Assembly (NCBI GenBank): GCA_038087875.1
Contig: CM075994.1
Span: 4,280,001-4,344,000 of the forward strand
Length of the DNA: 64,000 nucleotides
DNA from: Malacoraja senta
Taxonomy: Eukaryota
Reading direction: 5' to 3'
The notes beneath the pieces were generated by a model. That model had not been told where the DNA came from. It ran no database searches and saw only the letters and a program-made list of their open reading frames with translations. The translations under genes and the position numbers were made by a program. Each line of letters opens with the position of its first letter. Position 1 is the stretch's first letter. Below are positions 1,168 to 60,314 of the stretch, in pieces.

Positions 1168-1194
1168 AAACGCAAAAGGTTACGAGGAAATTTG
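1168..1194 (+). CDS. micro-exon 27 nt (E)TQKVTRKF
   Basis: tttcattctAG|AAACGC...TTTG|GTaagc. Confidence 0.78.

Positions 1195-60314: not shown

Follow-up and report, generated by a model that had tools for sequence, protein, structure and literature searches.

The closest described counterparts of the locus reported here are the BG genes of the chicken and the butyrophilins. The coiled-coil tail of chicken BG proteins is encoded by 13-36 exons of 21 (sometimes 24) nucleotides (nt) whose end residues are split between neighbouring exons, in compact genes in which the tail exons lie behind IgV and transmembrane exons (PMC4046983), and in butyrophilins, throughout the jawed vertebrates, the number of heptads that follow the membrane varies (PMC12841164). 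Here we describe a window of 64,000 nt of Malacoraja senta (contig CM075994.1, hereafter C18, positions 4,280,001-4,344,000, + strand, in an assembly of 1.94 Gb and 6,182 contigs) that carries an array of very short exons. The window would be the internal part of one very large + strand protein-coding gene with nearly all of its coding sequence in micro-exons of phase 1-1. We consider it probable, at roughly 0.78, that the locus is a genuine micro-exon gene of very large size, that it encodes a heptad coiled-coil rod from duplicated two-exon modules of 21 residues each, and that it belongs to a local family.

The predicted gene follows the same principle as the BG tails and differs from them in module (36 + 27 nt), scale (at least 91 exons) and context. 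The likeness to BG genes lies in a coiled coil that is made from a long run of tiny, duplicated, symmetric exons with split codons, in the variable number of these exons and in their occurrence in a multigene family, whereas BG genes use one heptad per exon of 21 or 24 nt and 13-36 such exons, against exons of 27, 36 and 24 nt, a 63-nt two-exon module of three heptads and at least 91 exons here (PMC4046983). Moreover, the introns of the present locus are kb-sized, the array spans at least 320 kb of the assembly, and no Ig exon was found near this array or its relatives among the best 150 V-set and the best 150 C2-set_2 candidates. With the butyrophilins the locus has in common small phase-1 heptad exons and a phase-1 PRY-SPRY exon downstream on the same strand; butyrophilins, however, have few such heptad exons and these stand directly before B30.2, whereas here the B30.2 exon is 138 kb away and most probably of the TRIM type, and no C2-set_2 match (best 150 of 289 candidates) lies on the contig.

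Parts of this layout recur in other gene families. In CD23-type stalks a 21-residue repeat is encoded by a single 63-nt exon and the repeats are few; the three-heptad coiled-coil unit of 21 residues and the repetition of exon units are alike, but at the present locus the 21 residues are split 12 + 9 over two exons, and no lectin domain is near. The genes of tropoelastin and of non-fibrillar collagens hold long runs of small phase 1-1 exons in multiples of 9 nt (27, 36, 45), with large introns and two alternating exon types, an exon grammar that the array shares, although its product is neither Gly-X-Y nor rich in Gly, Pro and Val. The micro-exon genes of schistosomes, which encode small secreted flatworm proteins from a dozen or so micro-exons, likewise keep most of their coding sequence in symmetric micro-exons of which any subset stays in frame; this is a shared layout and not shared descent, and the present locus differs in its huge heptad rod and in lying in a genome with Ig V-set, MHC class I and TRIM-type exons. 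No account of a coiled-coil gene with 27/36-nt exons was found in the Creative Commons-licensed full text of PMC and bioRxiv.

Evidence for the array

In the window, a generic untrained filter, which asked for a YAG acceptor preceded by a stretch with 65% or more pyrimidines, agreement with at least 4 of the 6 donor consensus positions and no stop in the phase-1 frame, returned 15 units of 27 or 36 nt on the + strand, one on the - strand and 1.24 ± 1.18 (maximum 6) in 200 dinucleotide shuffles. With the six exon lengths proposed in an earlier reading of the letters of this DNA (the sequence-only reading), the corresponding counts were 22, 2 and 3.79 ± 1.97 (maximum 10, again in 200 dinucleotide shuffles). 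That reading had held that equally many units on the - strand or in shuffled sequence would speak against a gene, and the counts turned out to be far from equal. A strict splice filter without any frame filter, applied to lengths of 15-60 nt, gave 48 units on the + strand (9 at 27 nt and at most 4 at every other length) and 29 on the - strand, none of them at 27 nt, and with a looser splice filter the + and - strands had 22 versus 9 units at 27 nt and 13 versus 5 at 36 nt. A crude count of AG(N)nG[TC] on the + strand reached 452 at 27 nt versus 329-390 at the other lengths tried. When 29 units were picked by hand from a relaxed list of 171 rows, their phase 1-1 junctions gave a stop-free chain of about 270 codons, while both other frames held many stops.

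A weight matrix trained on these 29 window exons alone was then run over 264 kb, where its + strand matches numbered 42 at 27 nt, 23 at 36 nt and 12 at 24 nt, versus 3, 1 and 1 on the - strand, neighbouring lengths giving 0-4 on the + strand. Since most of the additional matches lay outside the window, this run is an independent check of the exon pattern seen inside it. A retrained matrix with an added term for amino-acid composition gave 89 units on the + strand and none on the - strand of 304 kb, and in the furthest 45 kb upstream a looser threshold gave 18 rows on the + strand versus one on the - strand. The acceptors are uniformly (Y)nCAG and the donors GTRAG. The observation of a micro-exon array on the + strand is confirmed, with strand, length and frame all far from chance; a chance origin was dropped on the untrained counts of 15, 1 and 1.24 ± 1.18 and on the failure of the trained model to find a single unit on the - strand.

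In all, 344 kb were covered, that is the window and 280 kb of its flanks (from window -180 kb up to its start, and from its end at 64 kb to 164 kb). After removal of overlaps and of one copy of a duplicated block, they hold 91 non-redundant phase 1-1 micro-exons between window positions -179,079 and +140,652 (48 of 27 nt, 25 of 36 nt, 11 of 24 nt and 7 of other lengths), 90 of which are at most 36 nt long and a multiple of 3. Joined together, the 91 exons give 871 codons with no stop, versus 69 and 71 stops in the other two frames. The array spans at least 320 kb of the assembly, or about 268 kb without a probable false duplication, and its introns measure 0.05-39 kb and are rich in retroelement relics. 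The pattern matches at C18 4,039,051 and 4,067,370, which are described below, suggest a start of the array at least 62 kb further upstream than window -179,079. The sequence-only reading had described 34 exons over 59 kb as the unit, which turns out to be a mere slice of the whole; its symmetric phase 1-1 exons that join without a stop are found again along the entire chain, and its expectation that the terminal domains lie outside the window agrees with an array running past both window edges. The array that it had noticed is thus confirmed, and was understated.

Predicted product

Among the 871 residues, there are 158 Glu, 125 Lys and 116 Leu, as compared with one Pro and 8 Gly, in line with the E/K/Q/L-rich, helix-like and coiled-coil-like peptide of the sequence-only reading, which the heptad periodicity bears out as well. 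Collagen or elastin was considered for the product and dropped, the chain being not Gly-X-Y and having so few Gly and Pro. The strongest hydrophobic period is 3.42 residues, and in the best register the hydrophobic fraction at positions a and d is 0.516 versus 0.421 ± 0.012 in 200 residue shuffles. The split codon reads Glu at 59 of the 90 junctions, since an exon usually closes with G and its successor usually opens with AA or AG.

Counting the junction residue as position 1, the 36-nt exons are hydrophobic at positions 2, 5, 9 and 12 in 88, 72, 68 and 48% of cases, respectively, and the 27-nt exons are hydrophobic at position 4 in 72% and have Lys at position 7 in 30 of 47. A 36-nt exon and the 27-nt exon behind it thus encode 21 residues, or three heptads, per pair, with core positions 2, 5, 9, 12 and 16 and a conserved Lys at the sixth core position (19). 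The alternation of 36 and 27 nt is regular from window 51.6 kb on and far upstream, and window 20-50 kb holds mostly exons of 27 and 24 nt. Spliced together as predicted, the exons would encode an uninterrupted alpha-helical heptad (coiled-coil) rod, and the product would be a parallel dimer or trimer more than 100 nm long that might serve as a spacer or tail. Since every exon is symmetric, exon skipping, above all of whole 63-nt modules, could alter the length of the rod while keeping both the frame and the heptad register.

Constraint, duplication and related arrays

The third codon position of the phase-1 frame is the most variable one, with an entropy of 1.69 versus 1.47 and 1.42 in the 27-nt exons and of 1.74 versus 1.36 and 1.22 in the 36-nt exons. 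In a comparison of five 36-nt exons that are young paralogues, third positions hold 36 of the 68 pairwise differences, and among their 27-nt partners 30 of 76. In five modules at window 73-93 kb the exons are 72-81% identical, and the intron flanks reach a mean identity of 70% and 52% beside the 36-nt exons and of 57% and 70% beside the 27-nt exons, where random pairs of 130-mers have 34 ± 17%. The intron flanks common to these modules argue for growth of the array by tandem duplication of exon-plus-intron units. The building block would be the two-exon module of 36 + 27 nt, and the array would have lengthened by its tandem duplication.

A 34-place pattern derived from the 27-nt exons had 24 matches in the whole genome versus 2 for the reversed control, with 12 matches on the + strand of C18 at 3.14-4.40 Mb and 7 on the - strand of a second contig, C5, at 15.48-16.22 Mb. 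A second pattern of 34 nt had 136 matches genome-wide versus 24 for its control; among the matches listed, 29 fall on C18 in four strand-consistent blocks and 10 more on C5. The C18 blocks, again counted among the matches listed, are at 3.03-3.50 Mb (+ strand, 9 matches), at 4.04-4.41 Mb (+ strand, 8 matches; the present gene, 4.04-4.42 Mb), at 4.65-5.51 Mb (- strand, 5 matches) and at 5.79-6.03 Mb (+ strand, 7 matches). A match-free gap of 0.5 Mb before the present gene suggests that the block at 3.03-3.54 Mb is a separate paralogue. The matched C5 exons are in phase 1 and likewise conform to x-x-[LM]-[RH]-x-[KN]-[DE]-x. From these matches, the present array appears to be one of a family with at least four blocks on both strands over about 3 Mb of C18, plus the cluster on C5.

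About 45 of the 100 second-pattern matches listed are one identical 34-mer on unplaced contigs, found for instance on contig C2028 at 23630, 26627 and 29591, that is every 3 kb. This recurrent 34-mer would be a different high-copy repeat or gene family.

Neighbouring domains and rival explanations

Among the matches listed in a whole-genome SPRY search is one + strand exon at C18:4,559,228, on the same strand as the array. It is part of a complete PRY-SPRY exon at C18:4,559,067-4,559,596 (PRY 8.3e-19, SPRY 1.7e-23) whose first full codon starts two bases after the acceptor, which is phase 1 and hence compatible with the donors of the micro-exons. The distance from the last micro-exon (window 140,626-140,652) to this B30.2 exon is 138 kb. 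The 23 kb that follow the last micro-exon contain no further one, neither genome-wide pattern matches in the rest of the interval, and the 4 kb upstream of the B30.2 exon hold no coil micro-exon; eight acceptors with short phase-1 frames follow the last micro-exon, none of them decisive as a terminal exon. The PRY-SPRY exon is one of 822 candidate copies, the best 150 of which were scored at 73-83% identity, and 6 of its 10 closest copies have a same-strand B-box 9-15 kb upstream among the matches listed; on this arrangement in its closest copies the exon would most probably belong to an ordinary TRIM-type gene. The candidates, many of which have a same-strand B-box exon 9-15 kb upstream, point to a massive expansion of TRIM-type PRY-SPRY exons, a large share of which sits on unplaced contigs and at C18 9.8-11.6 Mb.

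For the other domains, the best 150 of 1517 V-set candidates, the best 150 of 289 C2-set_2 candidates (64 matches) and the best 150 of 560 B-box candidates were scored, together with all 112 Lectin_C candidates (39 matches) and all 110 MHC class I candidates (88 matches). Within these sets, neither a V-set match nor any of the 64 C2-set_2 matches fell at C18 3-6.1 Mb or at C5 15.4-18.1 Mb, the C2-set_2 exons among the matches listed clustering on another contig. None of the 88 MHC class I matches was on C18 or at C5 15.4-18.1 Mb, and no B-box match (best 150) was at C18 3-6.1 Mb. Among the V-set matches listed, those on contigs C41 and C3819 recur regularly, every 7-8 kb or so and every 22 kb or so, as Ig-type V exons in many repeated clusters.

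The array might be the expanded cytoplasmic heptad tail of a B7-family protein (BG or butyrophilin-like) with IgV, or IgV and IgC, and transmembrane exons upstream and possibly B30.2 downstream, as the sequence-only reading had proposed. Chicken BG tails also consist of many tiny split-codon heptad exons of variable number in a multigene family (PMC4046983), butyrophilins differ in how many heptads follow their transmembrane helix (PMC12841164), and the PRY-SPRY exon downstream has the right strand and phase. That exon, the only same-strand phase-1 one among the matches listed when B30.2 was looked for downstream as the sequence-only reading had advised, is nevertheless separated from the array by 138 kb with neither micro-exon nor pattern match where scanned, its closest relatives are of the TRIM type by their nearby B-box, and the other arrays have no listed B30.2 match at their 3' ends. 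Together with the lack of V-set and C2-set_2 matches near the C18 and C5 arrays within the best 150 of each and of MHC class I exons on C18, and with exons of 27/36 nt rather than 21/24 nt and introns of kb size, this makes membership in the B7 family unlikely in our view; the BG or butyrophilin label is an analogy and not a demonstrated membership, and a butyrophilin with IgV and IgC is disfavoured. The same downstream exon could instead be the last exon of a giant TRIM-like gene with RING and B-box exons upstream and the array as its extended coiled coil, given that it is of the TRIM type with a phase-1 acceptor on the same strand, that TRIM proteins have a coiled coil between B-box and B30.2 and that the contig bears many TRIM-type exons. 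We hold this for even less probable: the closest copies have their B-box only 9-15 kb from the B30.2 exon, so that a TRIM gene of normal size near 4.55 Mb is the simpler explanation, the B-box search was negative around the array, and the other arrays have no listed B30.2 exon. The sequence-only reading had also considered the stalk of another receptor, with C-type lectin exons among those to be looked for. A long heptad stalk from repeated symmetric exons does resemble the neck of type II C-type lectin receptors such as the CD23-like ones, but all 39 Lectin_C matches lie off C18, the sole one on C5, at 59 Mb, is distant from the arrays there, and 72 + strand open reading frames of at least 60 residues in the 23 kb at window 140.7-164 kb matched no Pfam family, short lectin-domain exons being able to escape such a filter and not the whole-genome search. 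With the Lectin_C search negative near the arrays, this reading is close to excluded.

The array might finally not be a working gene, either because it is decaying or was never expressed, or because only a minority of its units are true exons. Such a reading gains from the fact that the exons were called from genomic sequence, from the difficulty that ninety consecutive micro-exons with kb-long introns would pose for exon definition, from the frequent breaks of heptad register in the chain of all exons, and from the 5 of 32 window units that are weak. Yet a stop-free chain of 871 codons, where the other frames have 69-71 stops, the excess of third-position variability, splice signals kept in old and diverged copies across four arrays and two contigs, and the complete lack of - strand units under the same model speak against it, and we give a non-working array no more than a slim chance. 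The preferred reading, a real and very large micro-exon gene for a heptad rod, has to be set against several points of its own. Splicing is predicted; contigs of two sequence data sets, aligned with window 40340-60339, cover introns and exons at even depth and are therefore genomic DNA, and their sole joints lie between repeats. The counts of 89 units, 27 strong exons and 91 exons are partly circular, the filters having been trained on + strand exons and having required an open frame and a coil-like composition, whereas the untrained strand and shuffle controls and the weight-matrix run outside the window are not. Neither end of the gene was seen in the sequence examined, in which no start codon, signal, transmembrane exon, stop or terminal exon could be fixed. 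Along the chain of all exons the heptad register shifts frequently, giving 57 register runs, which reflect either common stutters, or exons that are not all used together, or some wrong calls. A 2.4-kb piece of the C5 cluster has the pattern-matched 27-nt exon as its sole exon, and the family claim rests on clustered pattern matches. The gene may also have a known name, the comparison with described genes having been made in literature text.

Exons of the window

The sequence-only reading had listed 34 exons in the window. We recovered 32 of them, with the same outer coordinates of 1168 and 60314, and one 27-nt and one 36-nt unit were not identified confidently. We call strong the 27 that pass splice and composition scoring, and weak the 5 that pass the generic splice filter alone and are less coil-like. 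All are on the + strand. The first ones are at 1168-1194 (27 nt, phase 1-1, strong, in the duplicated first 6.5 kb, with a duplicate copy at window -50365), 1393-1419 (27 nt, strong, 198 nt downstream of the preceding exon), 2607-2642 (36 nt, strong), 5373-5399 (27 nt, strong, with a run A8 that is A7 in the upstream duplicate) and 5613-5639 (27 nt, strong splice sites and weaker coil composition), followed by 8528-8554 (27 nt, strong), 11702-11728 (27 nt) and 12501-12536 (36 nt, strong). The exon at 11702-11728 has the sole GC donor, which the sequence-only reading had also recorded.

The next two, at 20626-20652 (peptide not coil-like) and 20791-20817, are weak 27-nt candidates that pass the generic splice filter and were dropped by splice and composition scoring. 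They are followed by micro-exons at 22626-22643 (18 nt), 23447-23473 (27 nt, strong), 25442-25465 and 26131-26154 (24 nt each). A 45-nt candidate at 26349-26393, which contains Pro and Gly and is not coil-like, is weak, as is a 27-nt candidate at 31891-31917; both were dropped by the same scoring. Further downstream there are micro-exons at 35633-35659 (27 nt, with a strong donor and a weak acceptor score) and 35928-35951 (24 nt), the fifth weak candidate at 36618-36644 (27 nt, good splice sites and weak composition, likewise dropped), and micro-exons at 37150-37176 and 37344-37370 (27 nt each, the latter 167 nt downstream of the former), 40359-40382 and 45755-45778 (24 nt each) and 47365-47391 and 49996-50022 (27 nt each). 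The regular alternation then begins with 51593-51628 (36 nt), 53152-53178 (27 nt), 54817-54852 (36 nt), 55342-55368 (27 nt) and 56900-56935 (36 nt), and the window ends with exons at 58279-58308 (30 nt) and 60288-60314 (27 nt), the next exon being at window 66395. Five pairs lie close together, with gaps of 138-268 nt (1168/1393, 5373/5613, 20626/20791, 35633/35928 and 37150/37344), while most introns measure 0.5-10 kb; the members of these pairs may be used jointly or alternatively.

Introns and assembly

The window has a GC content of 39-54%. Retroelement domains (RVT_1, endonuclease, RNase H, integrase zinc domain and GIY-YIG) occur in 7 of its 12 longest stop-to-stop frames. The transposon relics between which the sequence-only reading had placed the exons are therefore real, and they occupy the introns. 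Four intronic relics are at 15287-16960 (+), 17647-19386 (-), 32627-33652 (+) and 42483-43457 (-); among these open reading frames, one has a reverse transcriptase and a weak GIY-YIG match (Penelope-like), one has an endonuclease domain (resembling a long interspersed nuclear element) and two have RNase H, integrase or reverse transcriptase domains (resembling long-terminal-repeat elements). The segments 27076-27395 and 30382-30701 are inverted arms of 320 nt, 85% complementary and each composed of 32/64-nt tandem repeats, which enclose a reverse-transcriptase open reading frame at 29013-30278 (-) and a (GA)241 microsatellite at 28310-28789; this element is an intronic retroelement with inverted terminal repeats. 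Just 3' of the last exon of the window there are two tandem repeats, one with a 48-nt unit at 61674-62210 (11.3 copies, 86% matches) and one with a 44-nt unit at 62628-62820 (4.5 copies, 92% matches).

The first 6536 nt of the window (1-6536, no strand assigned) belong to the second copy of a 51,360-bp block. The segments at window -96,327 to -44,996 and -44,795 to 6,536 show 99.84% identity across 51,360 aligned bases, differ by 27 mismatches and 45 gap openings, mostly single-base indels, and have a gap of 200 N exactly between them, at which the upstream copy ends. The A7 run in place of A8 in the upstream copy leaves its version of exon 5373-5399 only 26 nt long. This repeat is probably two overlapping contigs laid head to tail and not a biological duplication, and the exons at 1168-5639 are therefore to be counted once.

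Implications

If transcribed as predicted, this would be, to our knowledge, the longest run of consecutive micro-exons in one gene. Exons of 24-36 nt amid kb-long, repeat-filled introns are hard to accommodate in ordinary exon definition, and the locus would therefore be a natural test bed for the recognition of micro-exons. Under the same proviso, at least 91 consecutive micro-exons would stand against the 13-36 tail exons of chicken BG genes (PMC4046983). A bolder proposal, which strikes us as doubtful, is a family of giant genes with about 100 micro-exons each, spread as several arrays over about 3 Mb of one small, chromosome-scale contig and as a second cluster elsewhere, in which splicing would choose among 21-residue modules and so yield rods of programmable length or surface, a combinatorial "molecular ruler" or diversity system without a described counterpart. 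Extrapolation from the pattern matches would then put the micro-exons of this kind at on the order of 500 genome-wide, and such a system would require a dedicated recognition of 27-36-nt exons inside kb-long introns.

If the array is what we take it to be, it offers a clear case of a protein rod that has been extended stepwise by duplication of a three-heptad, two-exon module. Standard gene finders and open reading frame tracks will probably overlook such genes or cut them short, and apparently gene-poor megabases of C18 may be coding. In view of the many fast-evolving TRIM-type genes nearby, it is conceivable that the array gene has an immune function or another role that evolves rapidly.

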